From an uncultured Candidatus Saccharibacteria bacterium (GTDB lineage: Bacteria > Patescibacteriota > Minisyncoccia > 2-02-FULL-40-12 > GWA2-44-9): a stretch of DNA of 64,000 nucleotides. Shown piece by piece: positions 13,485 to 53,820 of this stretch. The position numbers were made by a program, and so were the translations under genes. Every line of letters begins with the position of its first letter. The stretch's first letter is position 1. The stretch is taken from the NCBI GenBank assembly GCA_964491455.1, contig CAZBFM010000001.1:3053-67052 (forward strand). Reading direction: 5' to 3'. The notes below the pieces were generated by a model. The model worked only from the letters and a program-made list of their open reading frames with translations, did no database searches and was not told the origin of the DNA.

Positions 13485-16655
<3,171 letters not shown>

Positions 16656-16749
16656 TGTTGTCGGAGATCCCTTATAAAATCAAGTTCAGATGCAGTGATA
16701 TATGGTGCGATTTATTACCCGTAAGAAAACCGAAGCTGTTGTGGCTTTC

Positions 16750-44119: not shown

Positions 44120-46405
44120 CTATTCCTCTGAGTCGTCTATGGCGAGCTGATTCTCGTTGAGCCTACCTCCCTGTCGCCAAATGTCATTTTGTCGCAAACC
44201 TGGTACTGGTAATAATTTGAATTTAGGATCGTAATAATCGCTTCTTGCGTGGAACGGATCATCGTCCGTTTTGAAGATAGAGCGCATGCTTTTTACAAGT
44301 AATCGTTTAATCTGGTATACATTTCCCAATTTTAGGGAGATGTTTGATCTTGCAGCAACCATACGCGTCATTTGCTGCGCTGTAGCGGTGTGAATATCGG
44401 TTGCGGCGAGCGCAGATAGTGCCTCTAGGAAATTCCATTCACGAGTTGGTTTTTGCTGTTTTTTACCCCTGGAGAACCCTAGCTGTACGTAATCTGGGGC
44501 GGCGATGTATTTCCCGTCGTAATAGATCTCAATCTCTTTGGCTCCTTCTTTAAATTTAATTTCAACTTTCTCGAATTTAACTACCTCGGGGAAGACGAGG
44601 TCAATTGAGTGTCGCTTTTTTACCGCGCGCCTGATGCCGAATATTTCTGGCGGAGATGCTATGGGTATGAGCGCGTTGCCAGGTACAATGTAGTAGTCTT
44701 GCGACTCTGGTTTGGTCGTTTTCTGAGCACGCGCTTCCGCTTTATCTTGAGGTTTCCGCGGTTGGCGTTTGAGTAAGTATGGTGAGAGATTTCCCTTAAT
44801 CTCATCTCGTTGGATGTGTACATCAGTTCTTCGTTGGTGCAGATAATATCCAATGAGGTTCATTTCTGGTGACGTTGCATTGAGTGCATTTTCGATATGG
44901 CCCTGGATGACAGGACTCCTCAAGCCATCAAATGTGTTGAGCAAGAAGAAAGAGTAAAGGGACTTTTCTACTCCACTGCTCGCTTCTTTCATTGATCGCT
45001 TAACGAGCTCAATGTCTATGTCCTGTTCTCGAATGGCTTTATGGTATAGGGCAACAACCTTGAAGATTGTTGTTTCCTTCTCACTCAGGATACGGTCGAT
45101 TTCCTGGTCTAGCTCACCAATGATGATGCTTTTGTTTGACGCTAGCAGTTTGAGTATCCAGAATTTCGACCAGTCGGTGACCTCACTGTTATTGTACGCT
45201 TCCCAAAGTGCGCTATCGATGGTTATGGCATCGAGTGGGTCGCCAAAAATATCGAGCATTACCATAGAGTCGGCAATGTATTGAATGATTGGCACTGTCA
45301 GTGAGGGTCGGATCGGGATGATCTTGATAAGGTCAAGGATCAAATTAAGGTTGAAGATTACGCTGGCCTTCAGATAGTACTTAAGACCGCGAATTTCTAG
45401 CTTCTCAACCTTTTCACCGCTGATTATTGCACCGATGATTCGGGGGATTGTGGCGGTGATACGCGCAAAATCGTCCTCGGGTATTTCGGGGGTGCTGTAG
45501 TCATAATCGGAGCTGATGCGCATGGCCTCAATCGCTTCAGTATCCTGAAGCTCGGTAACTTTTGTTTTCTCGTTGAGATTTAGGTTGTGACCTCGAAGAA
45601 AGCGTACTATTTTTTCTGTCGCTTTGAGCACATCTTCTTTGCTCCTGCCCATCAGCACAAGATCGTCCACGTATCGTAGATAGCGGAAGTTTTTCCCAGC
45701 CAGTTCTTCTTCGATATATTCATCAAGAGACGCAAGATATGCATTAGCGAGAACCGCTGATGGGCCAGGGCCTTGGGGCAATCCTTTTGGTAGGTCAGGA
45801 AACTCGGTCCATGTTCTCAGTTGTGTGTCGAGTATGGATAGAATTTTTTCATCCTTAATGCCAAAGTCGTTTTTGATTTTCTCCATTAACTTTCCGATTG
45901 GGATATGCTCGTAATATTGCTGAACATCAACCTCCAACTTCCAGACCAGCCCCTTTTCAAATGCTTTCTTTTGCCCTTCGCAGAACTTATCCCAATCATT
46001 GAAATATGGGGCGATAAAGGCTGGTGTTTCTGCATTATCATGAACTCGATTACCAAAACAGCTTTTGTCGGAGAGCTGATTGTCGATTTTGTATCCAAGG
46101 ATTTCTTGGTTGAAGATGGCTTGGAATACGATTCGATCGATCATCGACATTACGTAGACGGGCCGAAGGGCTAGATTGTCTTTAGGTATGTAAACGAAGA
46201 ACCCCTTTTCGGGGGCATAATTACCGTCTCGGATCTGTTTCTCTAGGGCAACAAAGAATTCGCCACCAAGGGCATCAATGGCAGTAGTGGCAGGATGATT
46301 AATTGGGTTTACGGAAAGTGTCGAGTGTGAGAGCTCGTGTTGAACGTGTGTGTATGCCAGCTTTAGGTTTTCTCGCGATGAGAACCGCTCAAAAAGAGTC
46401 GCCAT
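44120..46405 (-). CDS. reverse transcriptase, Abi/UG (defence-associated RT)-like, with about 450-aa helical C-terminal extension
   Basis: RT motifs: …LRPVYVMSMIDRIVFQA…; GLPQGPGPSAVLANAYL; YVDD (RYVDDLVLMG); 761 aa; no intron/retron context; neighbours are R-M and nuclease genes. Confidence 0.8.
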   Translation of the reverse strand: MATLFERFSSRENLKLAYTHVQHELSHSTLSVNPINHPATTAIDALGGEFFVALEKQIRDGNYAPEKGFFVYIPKDNLALRPVYVMSMIDRIVFQAIFNQEILGYKIDNQLSDKSCFGNRVHDNAETPAFIAPYFNDWDKFCEGQKKAFEKGLVWKLEVDVQQYYEHIPIGKLMEKIKNDFGIKDEKILSILDTQLRTWTEFPDLPKGLPQGPGPSAVLANAYLASLDEYIEEELAGKNFRYLRYVDDLVLMGRSKEDVLKATEKIVRFLRGHNLNLNEKTKVTELQDTEAIEAMRISSDYDYSTPEIPEDDFARITATIPRIIGAIISGEKVEKLEIRGLKYYLKASVIFNLNLILDLIKIIPIRPSLTVPIIQYIADSMVMLDIFGDPLDAITIDSALWEAYNNSEVTDWSKFWILKLLASNKSIIIGELDQEIDRILSEKETTIFKVVALYHKAIREQDIDIELVKRSMKEASSGVEKSLYSFFLLNTFDGLRSPVIQGHIENALNATSPEMNLIGYYLHQRRTDVHIQRDEIKGNLSPYLLKRQPRKPQDKAEARAQKTTKPESQDYYIVPGNALIPIASPPEIFGIRRAVKKRHSIDLVFPEVVKFEKVEIKFKEGAKEIEIYYDGKYIAAPDYVQLGFSRGKKQQKPTREWNFLEALSALAATDIHTATAQQMTRMVAARSNISLKLGNVYQIKRLLVKSMRSIFKTDDDPFHARSDYYDPKFKLLPVPGLRQNDIWRQGGRLNENQLAIDDSEE

Positions 46406-46700
46406 AGTAATAGTAATGTTGGTGGCATCCTACTCCCCAAGAGGGCTTATATCAAGGTATCGATGAGGCTTCCAATTAACCATCAATAGTGGTAATTTAT
46501 GCTTAACAATTTATCGCCTAACCCTTGTGAGCTTGTTGTCACAAGATATGGCGAAAAAATCCCCATCCCTGATACTGAACCCCTCGTTCAGCGCACTCAG
46601 GGATGGGTCATGCCCGAAAGGGTATGTGAGTCGCAAGACTCAACGCTAGCGGGGGGCTTTGTGTTTCCCGTTTGCGACATAGGTTTTACCCATCCCTACT

Positions 46701-47588
46701 ATGTCGAAAAAACTTCATCGGTTTGCCATTGCCGACCTTTTTGCTGGCATTGGCGGTTTCCATCTTGCCTTCCATCGTCTTGGTGCGGAGTGTGTTTTTG
46801 CAAGTGAATGGGATGAACACGCTCGAAAAACATACGAGCACAACTTTAAGAAAATCAGTCCCGACCTCTTTGAGAGTGGGAACTTTGCGGGAGATATAAC
46901 AAAAGTTTCTGCCAGCGCAGTACCCGATTTCGATATTCTCACAGGTGGTTTTCCGTGTCAGCCGTTTAGCCAGGCTGGCTTCAAGAAGGGATTTCAAGAT
47001 GCACGAGGGACTTTATTTTTTGATATTGCTCGCATCATTAGAGCGAAGCGACCCGTAGCGTACTTTATTGAGAATGTTCGGCATCTCCAGAAGCATGATG
47101 ATGGTAAGACGTTCGCTGCAATAAAAAGAATTATCGAGGACGACCTCGGTTACTCTTTCCATGCAAAAATCGTGAAGGCATCAGATTTCGGTTTGCCCCA
47201 GCATCGTCCGCGTCTTTATATGGTTGGTTTCAGGGATAAGGACGTTCCGTTCAAGTTTCCTGATCCCGTGCCATTAAAGATGAGTATGTCGGATGTGTTT
47301 GGAGGAGAGTGCGCGCGGAATGTTGGTTTCACTCTTCGCCTGGGAGGGCGTGGCTCTGGGCTCAACGATAGGAGGAATTGGGATACCTACCTTGTTGATG
47401 GAAAACAAAGAAGGCTGTCGCCTTTGGAAGGCAAGAAGATGATGGGCTTTCCGAATAGTTTTCATTTTCCTGTCACTGAAACCCAGGCGATGCGTCAGTT
47501 GGGTAATAGCGTTGCTGTGAATGCAATACGGGCAACCGCTCGAGAGATTATTAGTTCGCTTAATCATTACTATGGCAAAGGGAAATAG
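46701..47588 (+). CDS. DNA (cytosine-5)-methyltransferase
   Basis: motif I DLFAGIGGF, motif IV GGFPCQPFSQAG, motif VI ENV, QLGNSV. Confidence 0.9.
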   Translation: MSKKLHRFAIADLFAGIGGFHLAFHRLGAECVFASEWDEHARKTYEHNFKKISPDLFESGNFAGDITKVSASAVPDFDILTGGFPCQPFSQAGFKKGFQDARGTLFFDIARIIRAKRPVAYFIENVRHLQKHDDGKTFAAIKRIIEDDLGYSFHAKIVKASDFGLPQHRPRLYMVGFRDKDVPFKFPDPVPLKMSMSDVFGGECARNVGFTLRLGGRGSGLNDRRNWDTYLVDGKQRRLSPLEGKKMMGFPNSFHFPVTETQAMRQLGNSVAVNAIRATAREIISSLNHYYGKGK

Positions 47589-48651
47589 GGGTGAATGGAG
47601 TGAATTCTATGCCTTCATCAAACTCCTTTCGGAGAGACAGTTGAGTGCGGCTGATGATAACCTCCAGAAAATAAAAGACATTTTTTACCCAGTCCTACGA
47701 GTTATTCGCGAAGAGGCTACTGGAGTAACGGATTACGAGTTTGCTGAAGAGGGAAAGGTGAGAGTGCTCCAGGCTGGTACTGAAATCGCCCTGGTAGATA
47801 GTTCTGACCTAAAATCAAAGGTCTTGGATATATTTCAGGCAATCCAAGATAGTAGTGAAACTACTTTTGAAGTATCAGTTGCAGATGAGTTGATGACGCG
47901 TTTTCATGCTACTCGTCTTAATGCGGGCAATGGACGGAAAGAGGACATCGTCCTAAAAATACATGATCGCATGACTGGCACAGAGCCAGATGTGGGCTTT
48001 AGTATCAAATCGATGCTTGGCAACCCTGCTACTCTTCTCAATGCGTCTAGCGCCACAAACTTTATATATAAAATTTCGGGCCTTGGTGATGACCAGATCG
48101 AACGCATAAATTCAATTGATACACACTCAAAGGTTCGCGATCGCCTCTCTGCAATTGTTGCATCAGGAGGAGCTTTTACTTTTCAGGGTATGAGTTCGGG
48201 GGTTTTCACGAAGAACCTTCGACGAATTGATGCGGTTTTGCCAGAGATTTCAGCGCAGCTACTTCTGGCATTTTATATGGGCAAGGGGAGCCTCTTGCCA
48301 GATCTGGTTGCTAACCTGGGGGATGATGAGACGAATATACTTACATTCGATTTAGATCGCTCCGACTACGAGTTTAAGGTGAAAGGCTTGCTATACAATA
48401 TAGCCCTCGGCATGGTGCCCAATACGCCCTGGGATGGCCTTACGCGGGCCCACGGAGGGTATATTATCGTGCGTGAGGATGGAGAGATCGTTGGGTATCA
48501 TCTATCGAACGCAGATACTTTCAGGGGCTACCTGTACAAGAATGCACGTTTTGACACTCCGAGCACCACGCGTCACGGTTTCGGTTTGATCTACCAGGAG
48601 AATGGGGAGTCTTTTATCAAGTTGGCGATGCAGATTCGTTTTATTCGCTGA
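47572..48651 (+). CDS. putative Type II restriction endonuclease (HpaII-family-like) partnered with the C5-methyltransferase
   Basis: overlaps methyltransferase stop by 17 nt; N-terminus MAKGNRGEWSEFYAFIKLL resembles HpaII-type REases (recalled from memory, not searched). Confidence 0.5.
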   Translation: MAKGNRGEWSEFYAFIKLLSERQLSAADDNLQKIKDIFYPVLRVIREEATGVTDYEFAEEGKVRVLQAGTEIALVDSSDLKSKVLDIFQAIQDSSETTFEVSVADELMTRFHATRLNAGNGRKEDIVLKIHDRMTGTEPDVGFSIKSMLGNPATLLNASSATNFIYKISGLGDDQIERINSIDTHSKVRDRLSAIVASGGAFTFQGMSSGVFTKNLRRIDAVLPEISAQLLLAFYMGKGSLLPDLVANLGDDETNILTFDLDRSDYEFKVKGLLYNIALGMVPNTPWDGLTRAHGGYIIVREDGEIVGYHLSNADTFRGYLYKNARFDTPSTTRHGFGLIYQENGESFIKLAMQIRFIR

Positions 48652-48720
48652 CAGAAGACCAGTCGATGAGTGTCATAAAGCCTTGTTATTGTTCGATTTT
48701 TATAATAAAATCCCTCGGTT

Positions 48721-49467
48721 ATGTTTCAGGCAAAGACCCAACGAATATCAGAGCTGGCTGCAAAGTATCCAGATCGCATTATGGAAATGGAGTCGATTTT
48801 GAGCGCGTCGGCCAATGTCTATGTAGATTATGCGAATGTTCGTCCCTGGTCTGAGCGCCTCAAGTGGCACGTTGAACCGAAGCGGCTCAAGCAATTTTTA
48901 GACTCCTTCTCAAATTTTAAGTCCATCCGCTTTTATTCTGGTGAATTAAAGGGAGATGTTGACTCCGAAGCTTCTACTCAGGAGTTAAAGCGGATTTTCA
49001 ATTCTGGTCTCGTTACCAAGCCCGTTAAGATTATGCGACTCCCAATCAATGTTTCGAGCATTCCCAAGAATGATCCTGCTATCCTAAAGGATTTTATTCG
49101 TAAGCCGCTACTACAGAAATTAACGGTTCAAACCGTCGAATTATTAAATGGAGAGTTGGAGAAACTTAACCAGCAGGGTACGGCTTTCCTTGAGGATAGG
49201 AAGTGTAACTTCGACGTTGAGATAGGGACTGACATTCTTTTGGATCTTGAAAGGGGAAGTGCTGATGTCTTTGTGCTCTGGAGTGGAGATAGTGACTTTG
49301 CGGATCCTATTAGTAAGTTGCTTGCTGCGGGGAAAAAGGTCTACCTATTTGCTACTGCTCGCAGGATTGCTAGCGAGCTTAATACCCTTACGACTAGTGG
49401 ATTGGTAATTTTTGATATTCAGAAGATAAGGGACTTTATATGCTGGGCTCGTGAAATAACCCCGTAA
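48721..49467 (+). CDS. NYN/LabA-like domain protein (putative nuclease)
   Basis: …VYVDYANV…DVEIGTD…VLWSGDSDF… Asp pattern typical of NYN/PIN-like domain. Confidence 0.6.
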   Translation: MFQAKTQRISELAAKYPDRIMEMESILSASANVYVDYANVRPWSERLKWHVEPKRLKQFLDSFSNFKSIRFYSGELKGDVDSEASTQELKRIFNSGLVTKPVKIMRLPINVSSIPKNDPAILKDFIRKPLLQKLTVQTVELLNGELEKLNQQGTAFLEDRKCNFDVEIGTDILLDLERGSADVFVLWSGDSDFADPISKLLAAGKKVYLFATARRIASELNTLTTSGLVIFDIQKIRDFICWAREITP

Positions 49468-49476
49468 AATCAAGCA

Positions 49477-49508
49477 AAAGGGGCCCCTTGCGGGGCCCCT
49501 AAGCTTTA
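49477..49508 (+). terminator. hairpin terminator (aggggccccttgcggggcccct)
   Basis: 10-bp GC stem; weak T-run. Confidence 0.45.
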
Positions 49509-49640
49509 GAGTTCGTGATTGTTTCCAATCAGGGACATGATACCATACCCTGCTCCATTTTGTCCACATGGCCTGAAAAAGTCGTGAAACCTATTATAAT
49601 GACTCTTGGGGGAGTAATTAAGAAGCTATGACAGGGATAT

Positions 49641-49669
49641 TGACTTATCAGTATAAAACTGCTATAATG
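49641..49669 (+). promoter_or_regulatory. sigma70-like promoter (TTGACT-N17-TATAAT) for DGR target gene, about 165-nt leader
   Basis: consensus hexamers. Confidence 0.5.
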
Positions 49670-49834
49670 TAGGTAGGATATAGCTCTTTTCATCCATATA
49701 ACTTGCAGGTTTTGCTACAGCAGAGAGCGCCTATTGTGGGCCCTGTCTACTGTGGCAAAACCATGAGGTAGCGCCCAACAGTGCAACCGATGTGTCCCGC
49801 AAGGGATGTGTCACCAAACAGGAGATGCGTAGCT

Positions 49835-50425
49835 ATGGCTACTCCGTCTGATGTCAGCGTGGGCCTGGCCCACGAACTCACCATCACCACCACGAAGGCG
49901 GGATGGGAACCCAAGGACTTCGCAACCCTCGCCCACAGCGAGGACAAGGCCCGCGAGATCCTCGCGTACCTGCGCGGTCTCTCCGAGATCAAGCAGGTCA
50001 CGCACGCCATCGACTGCGATGCCGACCCCTTCCTGCCCAACGGCTGGCGGGTGGAAGAGCACCGCAAGGACGGCGTGATCGTCTGGGACCTCACCAAGGT
50101 CTCCCTTTATCTCTCCAAGGGGCAGAAGGGCGACAAGCGTATCGTCGGCAACGACCTCCGCAAGGAGCTCGCCAAGAAGCCCACGATGAACGCCAACGTG
50201 CTGGACTACCTGCTCAAGAACCCCCACCTCATTCCCGAGGACTGGAAGAAGGACGACCGTGGCAACACGCGCTACATCTTCTTCTGGGGGACCATCTACC
50301 GCGGCTCCGGCGACGGCCTGTACGTCCGCTATCTGTGCTGGGACGGCGGTGCGTGGAGCTGGGACGTCGGCTGGTTGGGCCGCGTCTTCGTCGGCGACCG
50401 CCCCGCTGCGTTGCGTGCAAGTTAG
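49835..50425 (+). CDS. DGR target protein 1 (196 aa, no signal peptide, C-terminal variable region); high-GC gene
   Basis: start at ATG 49835 (AGGAG 11 nt upstream; aligns with paralog N-terminus MAAKSAFSIVGLAHKL); VR at 3' end; conserved motifs IDCDADPF, MNANVLDYLLKNPHLIPEDWK, TRYIFFWGTIY. Confidence 0.75.
   Translation: MATPSDVSVGLAHELTITTTKAGWEPKDFATLAHSEDKAREILAYLRGLSEIKQVTHAIDCDADPFLPNGWRVEEHRKDGVIVWDLTKVSLYLSKGQKGDKRIVGNDLRKELAKKPTMNANVLDYLLKNPHLIPEDWKKDDRGNTRYIFFWGTIYRGSGDGLYVRYLCWDGGAWSWDVGWLGRVFVGDRPAALRAS
50298..50420 (+). repeat. DGR variable region (VR1)
   Basis: 123-nt homolog of TR; about 23 mismatches, 22 at positions where TR has A; 3'-terminal 20 nt identical to TR. Confidence 0.75.
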
Positions 50426-50487
50426 GTCCTTGGACCTGGTTCCTTAGGCCCCGTTGGCCTCTGAACCTTAGTCCTTCGACCCCGTTC

Positions 50488-50528
50488 GATGCCCTGTGTG
50501 CGAAAGCGCATGGGGCATCTTTTTTTGT
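50488..50528 (+). terminator. hairpin (gatgccc…ggggcatc) plus T7 downstream of VR1
   Basis: inverted repeat plus T-run. Confidence 0.5.
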
Positions 50529-50762
50529 GCTAAAATTAAATTGGAATTAGGCGAATATGCGGGCGACTACGGTTTCCTGCTGCCGAACCCAGTATCCATA
50601 CAACCCAGAATATCTCCGACTACGGTTTGAGGTAGCGTGGTGTATGTAGAAACTTCAAAAAATGAAGATACTTGGTAGGGGGTGCTATAGCATTGCGATG
50701 CCGAATACGATACAGCCCTGAGAGTACTCGAAGGGCAGTGGCACGGAAGGCACTCACTACAC

Positions 50763-50885
50763 ACCGCAACTCCGACGACAACCTGTACGTCCGCTATCTG
50801 TACTGGAACGACGGTGCGTGGAACTGGAACTACAACTGGTTGGACAACGACTTCAACGGCAACAACCCCGCTGCGTTGCGTGCAA
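50763..50885 (+). repeat. DGR template region (TR), adenine-rich (many AAC codons)
   Basis: aligns to VR1 with A-specific mismatches; located upstream of RT. Confidence 0.75.
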
Positions 50886-50891
50886 CTCTCC

Positions 50892-51287
50892 TCATTTCTC
50901 TCCCTTCGCGGGAGAGTTTTGTTTTTGCAGTTGGCCGTTCCATCCACCCATCATTTTGCCGATCTCATCCATCTTTAGAGATAGCGCGGCATACTTCTGG
51001 CTGTTCAATGATTTCGTCTCCCAGAGTACCAAGAGTAGTACTTTGAGCGTGTCTGTCTTTCGTATGGCGAGCCGAACATACGGGAGTTTCTCGTTGCGTG
51101 GAAGGAAGCTGGCAGTTGCCAGAGCTTCGATCAGTTCAATAAACAGGGCATCTATTCGTAGTCCAAGTGAGTGTCGGTGTGTCTTTGGGAGTGTTTGGAG
51201 ATAGCTATACCAAAGAATATAGGCACTTTTTGTGCTTTGAAGTAGTGGTATCAGCGGGGGGGGGGTATTATAGGAAGAATGGCTCAT
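50892..51287 (-). CDS. avd: Avd-like four-helix-bundle protein (accessory variability determinant), opposite strand
   Basis: …LPKTHRHSLGLRIDALFIELIEALA…LAIRKTDTLKVLLLVLWETKSL…EIGKMMGGW resembles four-helix-bundle/Avd family; start could be at 51431 (179 aa). Confidence 0.5.
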   Translation of the reverse strand: MSHSSYNTPPPLIPLLQSTKSAYILWYSYLQTLPKTHRHSLGLRIDALFIELIEALATASFLPRNEKLPYVRLAIRKTDTLKVLLLVLWETKSLNSQKYAALSLKMDEIGKMMGGWNGQLQKQNSPAKGEK

Positions 51288-52286
51288 AAGCAGTTCAAAT
51301 ATCCATACCAGAGTATCATTTCTTTGGAAAATCTCCTCCAGGCGTGGAGGGAGTTTCTTGTTGGTAAGCGGAGCCGAAAAGACGTTCAAGATTTTGAGCG
51401 TAATTTCATGGACAATGTTATTGCGCTGCACAGCGACTTAAGAGACAAGACATACTCTCATTCGGCGTATGAAAGTTTCAACATTTCCGACCCTAAGCCA
51501 CGGCACATTCATAAGGCGACCGTGCGAGATCGGTTATTGCACCACGCACTCTACCGAAATCTCTATCCATTCTTTGCGAGAGCGTTTATTTCGGACTCCT
51601 ATTCCTGTCAGCTCAATAAGGGGACGCATCGAGCGATGGATCGTTTTCGATCGTTTGAGCGTCAGGTATCCCGCAACCACACTCGCACAGCATGGGTGCT
51701 CAAGTGTGATGTGCGAAAGTTCTTTGCTTCTATAGACCAGGCAGTTCTTTTGGGGATTTTAAAGCAGTACATTCCAGATCAAGATACTCTCTGGCTGCTC
51801 TCGCAGATCATTGGAAGCTTTTCTTCGACCAAACCTGGTTTGGGGTTACCTCTGGGAAATCTCACCTCTCAACTCCTGGTGAATATCTATATGAACGAGC
51901 TGGATCAATTCGTGAAACACTCCCTGGGGGCTAAGCACTATATCCGCTATGCTGATGATTTTGTCGTTATGTCCCACGACAGGTCTTGGCTCGAAGAGTT
52001 GTTGCCTAGAATAGCTGACTTTTTAAATGAAAGGCTGTGCCTGGAACTTCATCCCAATAAAGTTTCTATTCAAGCTCTTGCCTCGGGAGTCGATTTTCTC
52101 GGTTGGGTGCACTTCTCTGACCATAGGGTGTTGAGAACGGTAGCAAAAAGGAGGATGTTTAGAGGTCTTGGGTCGCGAGGAGGCAATTCTCAAACCGTGC
52201 AGGCGTATTTGGGACTCATAAGCCATGGAAATACCAAAAAGCTCGAGCAACGAGTGCGCCAGCTTTCTTCCGAATATAGTGAGTAG
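51279..52286 (+). CDS. DGR reverse transcriptase
   Basis: 335 aa; RT motifs incl. LPLGNLTSQLLVNIYMNELD (DGR-type (I/L)GxxxSQ) and IRYADDFVV (YADD). Confidence 0.9.
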   Translation: MAHKQFKYPYQSIISLENLLQAWREFLVGKRSRKDVQDFERNFMDNVIALHSDLRDKTYSHSAYESFNISDPKPRHIHKATVRDRLLHHALYRNLYPFFARAFISDSYSCQLNKGTHRAMDRFRSFERQVSRNHTRTAWVLKCDVRKFFASIDQAVLLGILKQYIPDQDTLWLLSQIIGSFSSTKPGLGLPLGNLTSQLLVNIYMNELDQFVKHSLGAKHYIRYADDFVVMSHDRSWLEELLPRIADFLNERLCLELHPNKVSIQALASGVDFLGWVHFSDHRVLRTVAKRRMFRGLGSRGGNSQTVQAYLGLISHGNTKKLEQRVRQLSSEYSE

Positions 52287-52571
52287 CGGGGTAGGGTGAC
52301 TATCGAATAACTCCTGGAACTGTCTGAAAGTTAGGAGGTGGGAGTTTTATGGTGAACTGGAAGGGGATCAGCTTGAGATTTTCACTGTCAGCATGTCGGG
52401 TAGTGTTCATACCATGCCAATAGAGAGTGCCATAGGGTGTCAGTGTAGCACTGGACGAGGTTCAATTCTAGACCTTGTGAAATTAAAGTATTGTGATATA
52501 ATATACTTGTTCGTTAAGAATACTCAAGCGACAAGATCCGCAAGGATAGTCGCGCAAACAAGGAGGGCCGT

Positions 52572-53165
52572 ATGGCCGCAAAATCCGCGTTTTCAATAGT
52601 GGGGTTAGCCCACAAGCTCTGTTTAGCTTTCGAAGCACAGGGCTTCACGCCTGAACTTCTGAACGCACTTGCTGAAAGTCCGCATATCTTGGCTGAGCTG
52701 CGCAATGTCCAACGTGGCTATTCGGAGATCAAACCGATTACCTACGTTATCGACTGTGACGCCAAACCATTTGTACCTGATGAGTTGGAAGTCTTCGAGC
52801 ATATGCCAGGTGGTGTAGTCGTTTGGGACCCAACGAAGATTTGCCTGTTTCTCTCAGAGCGACAGAAGTGTGGTGCACTCGTAGTCGGAAACAAGCTGCG
52901 TAAGGAGCTCGCTCGAAGTCCGACGATGAACGCCAACGTCTTGAGCTTTCTGCTCAAGAACCCGCACCTCATTCCGGAGGACTGGAAGTACGACGAGCGT
53001 GGCAACACGCGCTATATCTTTTTCTGGGGCACAATCTACCGCGACGTTAGTGGACAACTGTGCGTTCCGTATCTGTGCTGGAACAGCTCAGTGTGGGTCC
53101 AAAATTATCACCGGTTGAAATACGTATTCACTTATATTCATCCCGCTGCGATGTACGTGCACTAG
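52572..53165 (+). CDS. DGR target paralog 2 (197 aa) with diverged VR
   Basis: about 50-60% identity to target 1 across length; C-terminus retains …YLCW… and cccgctgcg but mismatches vs TR not A-specific. Confidence 0.7.
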   Translation: MAAKSAFSIVGLAHKLCLAFEAQGFTPELLNALAESPHILAELRNVQRGYSEIKPITYVIDCDAKPFVPDELEVFEHMPGGVVVWDPTKICLFLSERQKCGALVVGNKLRKELARSPTMNANVLSFLLKNPHLIPEDWKYDERGNTRYIFFWGTIYRDVSGQLCVPYLCWNSSVWVQNYHRLKYVFTYIHPAAMYVH

Positions 53166-53180
53166 CACTGCTCAGCTTTC

Positions 53181-53210
53181 AGCCGACACACATGTGTCGG
53201 CTTTTTTGTT
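53181..53210 (+). terminator. hairpin agccgacacacatgtgtcggct + T6
   Basis: same hairpin repeats after paralog 3. Confidence 0.6.
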
Positions 53211-53312
53211 GGCGGCAGTGCTTGCATTATGGAGAATTCGTTGTATAATATATTTGTTCGTTAAGAATTCGAAGGCAAGTAGACTGACGAGCGAGAATTT
53301 AAAGGAGTACGC

Positions 53313-53771
53313 ATGAGGACTATGTTGAAGCGCCAATCTGGGAGTCGGGCGCATACGCGAGCTGAACATTCAATCGACTGTGACGCAGATCCGTATGGGC
53401 CCAGTGGCTGGAGCGTGAGGGCGCATCGTAGACGGGGCATTGTGCTCTGGGACTGCGGTAAGGTGGCACTGTTTCACTCTGATCGGCAAATGGGTGACGC
53501 GTGTATCACCGGGTTTGAGCTCCTCAAAGAGCTCAGCACGAACCAATCGATGAATGCCAACGTACTGGACTTTCTTCTGACTCATCCGCAATACATCCCG
53601 AAGAGTTGGAAAGGAAAGTACGTGTTTTTCATGGATACGATCTACGACGATGATGAAGGCGACGGATGCGTTCGCTGTCTCGCGTTTAGCGGCATGCATT
53701 GGTTTTGGTCGCACGGTTATTTGCGCGACAAATTTAGTGCGAATAACCCCGTCGCTGTCCGTGTAGTATAA
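53313..53771 (+). CDS. DGR target paralog 3 (N-terminally shorter, 152 aa) with diverged VR
   Basis: shares IDCDADP, MNANVLDFLL, NNPVAVR-type C-terminus; own TATAAT promoter copy. Confidence 0.65.
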   Translation: MRTMLKRQSGSRAHTRAEHSIDCDADPYGPSGWSVRAHRRRGIVLWDCGKVALFHSDRQMGDACITGFELLKELSTNQSMNANVLDFLLTHPQYIPKSWKGKYVFFMDTIYDDDEGDGCVRCLAFSGMHWFWSHGYLRDKFSANNPVAVRVV

Positions 53772-53791
53772 GACTTATTTGCTTCATCGGC

Positions 53792-53820
53792 AGCCGACAC
53801 ACGTGTGTCGGCTTTTTCAT
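53792..53820 (+). terminator. hairpin agccgacacacgtgtgtcggct + T5
   Basis: near-identical to 53181-53210 element. Confidence 0.6.

Follow-up and report, generated by a model that had tools for sequence, protein, structure and literature searches.

An apparently active diversity-generating retroelement of a known Patescibacteria type, with a structured RNA domain beside its template repeat and a possible switch at its avd/RT junction

The locus at 49641-53820 of the 64,000-nt stretch of DNA analysed here (the window; GCA_964491455.1, contig CAZBFM010000001.1) is, with high confidence, a chromosomal diversity-generating retroelement (DGR) of the CPR/Patescibacteria type, composed of a target gene ending in a variable repeat (VR), a template repeat (TR), a reversed avd gene and a reverse transcriptase (RT). 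DGRs of this type are known from Patescibacteria (CPR), and the locus is an added member of that known kind because its order of VR, TR, reversed avd and RT is the one named Architecture B3, in which the TR is followed by a reverse-strand avd and the RT, with the target upstream. In Wu et al. (2018, NAR, PMC5758913), 90% of the CPR set has Architecture B3. The same arrangement, with about 345 nt between VR(+) and TR(+) and then avd(-) and RT(+), was found in 66 of the 66 related Patescibacteria loci that have enough flanking sequence for it to be counted. The locus can be seen as a clean, well-behaved case of the CPR class, in which a comparison of two strains gives evidence of activity. Beyond the parts named in the original prediction, it also holds an opposite-strand avd, RNA elements around the TR, a G10 tract and non-target paralogs of the target gene. 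Three of the additional features, namely a 5′ RNA domain, a post-TR hairpin with a U-tract and a simple-sequence repeat, are common to about 65 to 70 related loci.

The TR (50763..50885, + strand) has 32 A in its 123 nt, many of them in AAC codons, and VR1 (50298..50420, +) codes for target residues 155-195. The two had been predicted to align colinearly over 123 nt with about 23 mismatches, 22 of them at a TR A, and the exact ungapped comparison gives just this: no gap, 23 mismatches and a TR adenine at 22 of the 23 (17 A>G, 3 A>T and 2 A>C). VR1 is changed at 22 of the 32 TR adenines (hypergeometric p = 1.2e-15), and tabulating the mismatches by TR base thus upholds the adenine bias. The sole mismatch at another base, a T>G at 50366, adjoins an A site. 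Within the ORF at 49835-50425, all 23 mismatches occupy first or second codon positions, and VR1 ends 5 nt short of the end of this ORF, stop codon counted. An independent repeat search of the window recovers the same TR/VR1 pair and no further TR-like sequence was found elsewhere in the window. Past both ends, the flanks of the TR and VR1 are unrelated.

The last 20 nt of the VR (50401..50420, +), which have a GC-rich start (CCCCGCTGCG...), form an IMH-like 3′ boundary. They are exactly identical to the end of the TR (50866-50885) and the copies diverge immediately 3′, again as had been foreseen. IMH and IMH* are therefore one and the same sequence at this locus; if the segment acts as the boundary, any discrimination between the two copies must lie downstream. 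A case of identical IMH and IMH* has also been described by Wu et al. (2018, PMC5758913). A short inverted repeat, AGGTCC TT GGACCT (50424..50437, +), lies 3 nt past the VR, and its stem is preserved in L001, a contig of 95% identity that comes from another run, where the change is in the loop only. Hairpins at this position were considered as a clade-wide feature and dropped, since they occur in 22 of 66 related loci and at 136 of 660 random control positions, with no excess across the clade.

Target gene 1 (49835..50425, +) encodes a protein of 196 aa with VR1 at its 3′ end, and has a GC content of 64% and a GC3 of 89% compared with about 51% for the window. Upstream of it is a promoter-like site (TTGACT, 17 nt, TATAAT, with TG; 49640..49668, +), recognized by its match to 11 of 12 consensus positions, which would leave a 5′ leader of about 165 nt. 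Downstream, an intrinsic-terminator-like hairpin with a 14-bp stem and T7 (50488..50526, +) is predicted to end the target-gene transcript. The target protein matches no Pfam or NCBIfam family and has no recognizable signal peptide; it belongs to a family of proteins of about 195 aa whose named members come from Patescibacteria. Any ligand and cellular location assigned to it are putative. Two paralogs follow the RT gene. Paralog 2 (52572..53165, +; 54% aa identity) has its own promoter-like site and terminator, and paralog 3 (53313..53771, +; 43% aa identity) is without the N-terminal helices and has its own VR-like end. Both were considered as carriers of extra VRs and rejected: the VR-equivalent of paralog 2 has 52 mismatches to the TR and that of paralog 3 has 60, in neither case with an A bias, so the paralogs are not current targets.

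The RT (335 aa; 51279..52286, +) carries the two motifs that had been attributed to it, LGNLTSQ at 51852-51872 and YADD at 51948-51959, and is without a maturase extension. Among solved structures, its closest relative is that of the Bordetella phage DGR (PDB 8ub7, E 1.2e-43), whereas RTs of group II introns and chains labelled retron-type in their deposition come to 1e-17 to 1e-18 at best and a retron RT proper (Kva2) only to 3e-4. With an [I/L]GxxxSQ motif, a YxDD motif and 8ub7 as its closest match, the RT can, on the basis of these matches, be placed among DGR RTs, in keeping with the expectation that it would prove DGR-like and not of the group II intron or retron kind. Pfam reports a generic RVT_1 domain only, and the best NCBIfam match is the group II intron RT model TIGR04416, at a score of 135 under a cutoff of 300. 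Scans with padloc and NCBIfam gave no defence-RT family above cutoff. Searches of Rfam, over the window at the gathering threshold and over 49500-51400 at E values up to 10, gave no intron or retron RNA, and neither the intron RNA domains and maturase of a group II intron nor the msr/msd RNA of a retron was found. The avd gene (accessory variability determinant; 50892..51287, -) encodes 131 aa from an ATG at 51287. Its product matches Pfam bAvd with 42.7 bits (gathering score 40) and NCBIfam DivGenRetAVD with 58.7 bits (E 5.7e-16), the latter under the cutoff of 80. The gene is divergent from that of the RT, with a head-to-head overlap of 9 nt; Avd is conserved in at least 70 related loci, and the orientation is the same in all related loci.

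Several RNA elements can be recognized around the TR. An extended -10-like element, TGcTAAAAT (50528..50536, +), lies about 6 nt ahead of a conserved RNA domain, and TATACT, TATAAT or TAGACT is aligned at the equivalent site in relatives; we propose it as a putative promoter of the TR RNA. The domain itself (50542..50760, +) forms the structured 5′ part of the TR RNA, with 7 helices and support from covariation. Its closing helix of 12 bp (50675-50686 with 50749-50760) ends 2 nt ahead of the TR. This domain of about 220 nt shows 70-82% nt identity across loci, and its 53 pairs are paired in 96.6% of cells. Changes on both sides were seen in 37 pairs compared with 9-15 in slid controls, and none of 500 shuffles equalled the observed values. 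A search across loci with an nhmmer profile found the domain once in each of 64 related loci and once in the window, in every case directly against the TR. No Rfam family matched it in either of the Rfam searches described above (the window, and 49500-51400 at E up to 10).

Within the 5′ domain, the segment AAATGAAG (50660..50667, +) is complementary to a conserved CTTCATTT-type segment just 3′ of the TR. In the window the post-TR segment reads CCTCATTT (50890-50897), leaving one mismatch to its partner. The putative AAAUGAAG/CUUCAUUU pairing would join these two segments, and two related loci (L006 and L030) have TAAAG with CTTTA, a compensatory change; a permutation test of the pairing was weak (6/200). 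Next comes a stem-loop, CTCTCCC/TTCGC/GGGAGAG, followed by TTTTGTTTTT (50898..50926, +), which begins 12 nt past the TR and lies antisense within the 3′ end of avd. A post-TR hairpin with a T-rich tail is present in 47 of 66 related loci, compared with 19 of 660 random positions (3%). By analogy, this element may be a stem-loop of the Avd-binding type, a terminator of the TR RNA, or both. Efficient termination at the U-tract would leave a 3′ region far shorter than the 140-nt Bordetella spacer, in which case priming may differ from that of the Bordetella element.

From these elements we infer a mechanism, including where the transcript ends lie, what the RNA elements do and how the cDNA is primed. 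A discrete RNA of about 380 nt, running from about 50543 to about 50926, would be transcribed from the extended -10 element near 50530. It would begin with the structured 5′ domain and continue through the 123-nt TR and a short linker to the stem-loop and the U-tract. The RT and Avd would bind this RNA, copy the TR into cDNA and misincorporate opposite adenines. The cDNA would then replace VR1 at the 3′ end of the gene at 49835-50425, and the 20-nt GC-rich end common to both copies would set the 3′ boundary. Such a process could recode up to 22 or more codon positions in a putatively lectin-like surface at the C-terminus of the 196-aa protein.

A G10 tract on the + strand, C10 on the - strand (51256..51265), lies at the junction of avd and the RT gene, and we propose it as a putative slippage-prone switch. 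The C10 corresponds to the Pro-Pro-Pro codons 9-11 of avd and the first base of codon 12; TATTAT stands directly 3′ of the G10, and the RT ATG is 14 nt downstream. In 80 loci, 61 runs of G8 or longer fall in the 90 nt that precede the RT start, compared with 2 other G or C runs of that length in 719 kb, so that a repeat tract in a 5′ coding region or promoter occurs here beyond chance, as in contingency loci. The repeat is usually G8-14, and a minority of loci carry (CT)n, (GA)n, (GT)n or (CTGG)n at the same site; what is conserved is therefore repetitiveness and not sequence. Relative to the nearest ATG, avd is in frame in 28 loci and out of frame in 41 (70 loci, about 60% out). The length varies between conspecific contigs: among contigs with an identical RT protein, G10 and G11 versions were found in 2 of 3 groups, a difference that may alter the reading frame or expression. 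The window has G10, and an otherwise identical contig breaks off inside the tract after at least 11 G. Scanning metagenomes for the flanks of the window tract gave no match, and a scan for another species gave two more G10 copies. Two other arrangements were rejected: no avd start codon downstream of the tract, which would place the tract in a 5′ UTR, is conserved or present in the window, and a standard sigma-70 promoter in which the G tract would form the spacer fits poorly by eye at the -35 in the window and is not listed there by a promoter scan.

The repeat can thus be considered a possible on/off switch for the retroelement. A broader reading, in which a hypermutable simple-sequence repeat gates the DGR machinery clade-wide and the TR is carried on a discrete small RNA whose protein-binding domain, large and structured, stands 5′ of the TR, is put forward tentatively, at somewhat less than even confidence. 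This repeat is at the 5′ coding end of avd and is followed at once by a -10-like box that faces the RT. The RNA, absent from Rfam, would amount to a rearranged form of the DGR RNA of Bordetella. The clade of these Patescibacteria DGRs has relatives in the thousands. In the published literature covered, from which Paul et al. 2017 was absent, no description of the 5′ RNA domain or the junction repeat was found, nor anything relevant on a DGR or avd with a homopolymer or phase variation.

The G10 tract and its counterparts may instead be a fixed element, such as part of a promoter or leader of the RT, a poly-proline linker in Avd or a structure within a transcript that reads through from TR to RT, with the differences in frame being homopolymer assembly errors or bypassed by slippage in transcription or translation. 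We regard this as a serious possibility, though not quite an even one. TAnnnT follows directly after the G-run in 26 of 63 loci against a background of 1.7%, which points to a promoter context, and tract lengths differ only by +/-1 between assemblies. Sequencing is prone to errors in homopolymers, and +1 frameshifting by tRNA-Pro is known to occur at C-runs. However, a fixed element does not readily account for the di- and tetranucleotide repeats that take its position in a minority of loci or for the lack of a conserved start codon downstream, and 41 of 70 loci out of frame are too many for assembly errors. If the repeat is indeed a slippage switch, these bacteria of very small genome would run a hypermutation device by means of a second, cheaper one. 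This would explain the keeping of a costly mutator for intermittent use, and many avd genes that look broken in assemblies would be off-phase and not dead. Should the broader reading hold as a whole, targeted protein hypermutation would itself be stochastically switchable.

Activity can be judged by comparing the window with L001. The TR is nearly invariant between the two strains, with one base different, and the VR of L001 carries that same base. Measured against its own TR, the L001 VR is changed only at adenines (22/22). The window and L001 VRs differ at 21 positions, 19 of them TR-A sites, whereas the sequence around them is only 3.2% divergent, so the VR is not clonal across samples. Four close protein relatives of the target show the same contrast, with 91-96% identity outside the VR and 50-64% inside. 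A hypervariable VR beside a constant TR is the pattern of ongoing mutagenic homing, seen here only as differences between samples, and the retroelement is, on this comparative evidence, apparently active. That the element is a decayed relic, its TR/VR pattern recording past activity, is very improbable. Features of this kind do exist around it: the VR-like ends of the two neighbouring paralogs are fully decayed, the avd frame hangs on the G10 tract and is so often lost in related genomes, and some related genomes (L002, L003) have target-gene orthologs without an adjacent RT. Against this, the RT and avd ORFs of the window are intact and in frame, the VRs of 95%-identical strains differ almost only at A sites while the TR barely changes, a point change in the TR is echoed in the VR of the same strain, and a long-dead element would have gathered more than 1 non-A difference in 23.

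An ordinary tandem duplication or gene-conversion tract that has drifted beside the RT of a group II intron, retron or defence system, as the generic RVT_1 match, the sub-cutoff group II intron model and the 'retron-type' or 'group II intron' labels of homologs in source annotations might suggest, is already refuted by the adenine bias and the confinement of every change to the first two codon positions, an RT far nearer 8ub7 than group II intron RTs or deposited retron-type chains, the presence of an Avd gene, the lack of a group II intron or other RNA family in Rfam and the recurrence of the TR/VR geometry in 66 loci. Mutagenic homing by an active system rather than a duplication, as originally predicted, is in this way supported by the adenine bias, the DGR-like RT, Avd and a VR rewritten in L001 over a near-constant TR.

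Of the known systems, the closest are the CPR DGRs of Architecture B3, 'TR-(avd)-RT' (Wu et al. 2018, PMC5758913), which share the gene order, orientation and host group of the locus, as well as a small target of unknown family, a 3′ VR and AAC-rich TR codons, with no essential differences. The 220-nt structured RNA beside the TR could serve as a sequence-and-structure marker for TRs and DGR RNAs in CPR genomes, and it lends itself to comparison with the RT-Avd-RNA structure from Bordetella. CPR/Patescibacteria DGRs are reportedly also the subject of Paul et al. 2017. The Bordetella phage BPP-1 DGR (mtd-avd-TR-brt), the source of structure 8ub7 (Handa et al., preprint 10.1101/2023.10.23.563531), shares the adenine-specific transfer from TR to VR, an Avd partner, a homologous RT (E 1e-43; xGxLTSQ is IGSLTSQ in bRT and LGNLTSQ here), a GC-rich boundary that is IMH-like in the locus, a stem-loop that closely follows the TR and pairing, putative in the locus, of a segment 5′ of the TR with one 3′ of it. 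It differs in that avd is here inverted and placed between the TR and RT, a large conserved RNA domain stands 5′ of the TR where BPP-1 has a 140-nt spacer 3′, and the post-TR hairpin has a U-tract. In addition, the BPP-1 target is a phage tail fibre, whereas the locus is a chromosomal element whose target is a small protein without a recognizable signal peptide.

The junction repeat can be compared with simple-sequence-repeat contingency loci, for instance the poly-G/C tracts in the porA and opc promoters of Neisseria and the tetranucleotide repeats in Haemophilus genes. As in those loci, a run of 8-14 identical bases, or else a di- or tetranucleotide repeat, stands at the 5′ coding end or promoter spacer of a gene, its length varies between near-identical genomes and the frame would be on or off according to that length. 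The difference is that the gene under control here would form part of a mutagenic retroelement and not be a surface antigen or R-M gene.

The diversity-generating retroelement (DGR) that the original prediction placed at 49641-53820, from the sequence alone, is confirmed as an observation, and its interpretation as a DGR is supported with high confidence. At its core is a template repeat (TR, 50763-50885) that aligns without a gap over 123 nt to a variable repeat (VR1, 50298-50420). Position-by-position comparison gives 23 mismatches, with 22 of them at TR adenines (17 A>G, 3 A>T and 2 A>C), which matches the colinear alignment and the approximate count of 23, 22 at A, that had been predicted. 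Tabulated by TR base, 22 of the 32 TR adenines are changed, an adenine bias with a hypergeometric probability of 1.2e-15, and the single exception, a T>G at 50366, sits beside a changed A. Every mismatch falls at the first or second codon position in the ORF at 49835-50425. The final 20 nt of the two repeats are identical and then, as had been described, the sequences diverge, with unrelated flanks on both sides of the repeats. The pair is also recovered independently by a repeat search of the window. The reverse transcriptase (RT, 51279-52286, plus strand) carries the predicted LGNLTSQ (51852-51872) and YADD (51948-51959) motifs. Its closest solved structure is chain 8ub7_A (E 1.2e-43), whose length of 328 aa and IGSLTSQ motif lead us to take it for the DGR RT of the Bordetella phage, whereas group II intron RTs and chains deposited as retron-type RTs reach at best 1e-17 to 1e-18, and Kva2, a retron RT proper, scores only 3e-4. 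The RT is thus of the DGR type, and the earlier description proved accurate in all details that could be checked.

VR1 forms the 3' end of target gene 1, the variable-protein gene (49835-50425, 196 aa). A strong promoter-like site (49640-49668) precedes this gene and a terminator-like hairpin (50488-50526) follows it. The TR lies downstream on the same strand and is followed by the accessory variability determinant gene, avd, which is encoded on the minus strand and, with the one plausible ATG as its start, spans 50892-51287. The avd product matches Pfam bAvd above the gathering score; the NCBIfam Avd model gives E 5.7e-16, yet below that model's cutoff. The starts of avd and the RT overlap head to head by 9 nt. 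Two target paralogs follow, paralog 2 (52572-53165) and paralog 3 (53313-53771), and both have a promoter-like site and a terminator of their own. They were rejected as current targets because their VR-equivalent ends, compared with the TR over 123 positions, show 52 and 60 mismatches without A bias, and no second TR is found in the 64-kb window. Their upstream segments (52497-52536 and 53244-53283) are 80% identical, TATAAT box included, and their terminator hairpins (53180-53206 and 53791-53817) are nearly identical, which indicates tandem duplication of whole transcription units. Target gene 1 itself is GC-rich (GC3 0.89, GC 0.64, against 0.51-0.60 and 0.47-0.53 for the paralogs, RT and neighbouring genes), as are its orthologs on two related contigs, L002 and L003, relative to their own contigs; this is more than A>G changes in the VR could produce by themselves. 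Several short palindromes centred on CCTTGG or CCTTAG, including AGGTCCTTGGACCT and GGCCCCGTTGGCC, lie 3' of the VR at 50420-50480, and similar motifs occur 3' of the VRs in some related loci.

The prediction of active diversification could be examined in a second-strain contig from another sequencing run, which is 95.4% identical to window 49653-50945, both repeats included. Its TR differs from that of the window by one base (G>A), an A that its VR shares, and all 22 mismatches of its own TR/VR pair are at A. Between the two VRs there are 21 differences: 19 at TR-A sites, one at the base where the TRs differ and one at the window's T>G. Divergence in the remainder of the alignment is 3.2%. 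Likewise, the four closest target homologs from other samples share 83-96% amino acid identity outside the VR and 50-64% inside it. A constant template and a VR rewritten between samples, as compared here at the sequence level, are what repeated mutagenic homing would be predicted to leave, and in this respect the claim of activity held up. Close orthologs of target gene 1 (77-83% amino acid identity) are also found on four related contigs (L002 and L003-L005), with no TR, avd or RT adjacent to them. On L003-L005 they lie directly upstream of a phosphoglucomutase gene, the position of paralog 3 in the window. These orthologs could be orphans or could be targeted in trans.

Just upstream of the TR and on its strand lies a 5' RNA domain of about 220 nt (50542-50760) with no conserved ORF and no Rfam match. 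Between loci whose RTs share only about 60-66% protein identity, the domain retains 70-82% nucleotide identity. An alignment of 18 sequences, in which two hairpin loops hold variable-length insertions, yields a consensus structure with 7 helices and 53 pairs, and 96.6% of cells are able to pair. Covariation is seen as changes on both sides of 37 pairs, compared with 9-15 after a shift of the partners by 1 to 3 columns, and none of 500 shuffles matched the observed pairing values. A sequence profile finds the domain exactly once per locus in the window and 64 related loci; each time it has the strand of the TR and is immediately adjacent to where the TR begins. An extended -10-like box, TGcTAAAAT (50528-50536), precedes the domain, with equivalent boxes aligned in relatives. 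Within the domain, the conserved single-stranded AAAUGAAG (50660-50667) is complementary to a conserved CUUCAUUU-type segment just 3' of the TR (50890-50897); pairing of UAAAG with CUUUA in two loci is compensatory, and permutation support for this pairing is weak (6/200). Twelve nucleotides after the TR, a 3' stem-loop followed by TTTTGTTTTT (50898-50926) lies antisense inside the 3' end of avd, and a hairpin with a T-rich tail is found 3' of the TR in 47 of 66 loci, compared with 19 of 660 random positions. We infer that the TR RNA is a discrete RNA of about 380 nt, with its main protein-binding scaffold 5' of the template.

A candidate control element is a G10 run at 51256-51265, at the 5' coding end of avd and just upstream of the RT start. 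On the minus strand it encodes Pro-Pro-Pro (avd codons 9-11), while on the plus strand TATTAT follows directly and the RT ATG lies 14 nt beyond the tract end. No other run of 8 or more G or C occurs in the window. Nearly every related locus has a G7-G14 run at the same place, with (CT)n, (GA)n, (GT)n or (CTGG)n instead in a minority; counted together, such repeats are conserved in about 70 of the related DGR loci (L006-L085). In 719 kb from 80 loci, runs of at least 8 G number 61 in the 90 nt before the RT start, and just 2 further G/C runs of that length occur elsewhere. In keeping with a promoter context, TAnnnT, whose background frequency is 1.7%, comes directly after the G-run in 26 of 63 loci. 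The tract lies 1-8 codons before the conserved Avd core (LPLLQK...) and appears to be translated, since the loci share no conserved start codon downstream of it and the window lacks one there. When avd is read from the nearest ATG on the far side of the tract, 28 related loci are in frame and 41 out of frame, and 1 locus has no such ATG; the window's avd is in frame. Tract length also varies among contigs with identical RT proteins: G10 in 10 and G11 in 2 for a first species, and G11 in 4 and G10 in 1 for a second, with G8 in all 5 for a third. A further, independent contig matches the window without a difference over 5431 nt and breaks off within the tract after at least 11 G. Part of this pattern could be due to sequencing errors in homopolymers or to transcriptional or translational slippage. 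Judged from its sequence, the tract bears the marks of a slipped-strand contingency switch that would act on avd translation and perhaps also on RT transcription. No report connecting DGRs or avd with such tracts was found in the literature within our scope, which excluded Paul et al. 2017.

The DGR is chromosomal and belongs to a bacterium of the Patescibacteria group (CPR), as the rRNA and housekeeping genes of the window (phosphoglucomutase, for example) and its Patescibacteria homologs show. All named target-protein homologs are from Patescibacteria, as are nearly all named RT loci, a few having other bin labels. The 23S rRNA gene (13486-16656) probably contains an insertion, because it spans 3171 nt against a 2925-position Rfam model; a 5S rRNA gene is also present, and a search of the whole window detected no 16S rRNA gene. 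A long 23S rRNA gene with an insertion and an undetected 16S are both common in CPR genomes. Nearby, a second RT (761 aa, 44120-46405, minus strand) has its best PADLOC match to RT_UG19 (E 3.5e-52), a defence-associated RT group. About 110 nt away and divergent from it is a LOOT RNA (46515-46642, plus strand; 77.8 bits, above the Rfam gathering score), and the two may form an RT-ncRNA pair. The region between this RT and the DGR (46701-49467) looks like a small defence island, with a cytosine methyltransferase (46701-47588), an HpaII-type restriction endonuclease (47521-48651) and an NYN-domain protein (48721-49467).

When the RT was used to scan species-representative genomes, 575 relatives were confirmed, from which 80 loci were kept, and the RT clade contains at least 7993 proteins at E below 1e-60. 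All 66 loci with enough upstream flank share the layout VR(+), about 345 nt, TR(+), avd(-), RT(+), and all 66 have A-biased TR/VR pairs. A putative Avd-binding stem-loop just 3' of the TR, together with an upstream-downstream duplex around it, has been described in 207 of 278 Avd-containing DGRs, CPR included, in a survey that covered only 40 nt upstream (Handa et al., 10.1101/2023.10.23.563531); the long-range pairing and 3' stem-loop therefore fit known DGR RNA architecture. For the large 5' domain, no description was found in the literature. This domain and the repeat tract, both clade-wide, may be new to the literature and point to a control mechanism that could be tested. The layout is that of Architecture B3, 'TR-(avd)-RT', as defined by Wu et al. 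2018 (PMC5758913), so the locus falls within the known CPR B3 class as an ordinary member.
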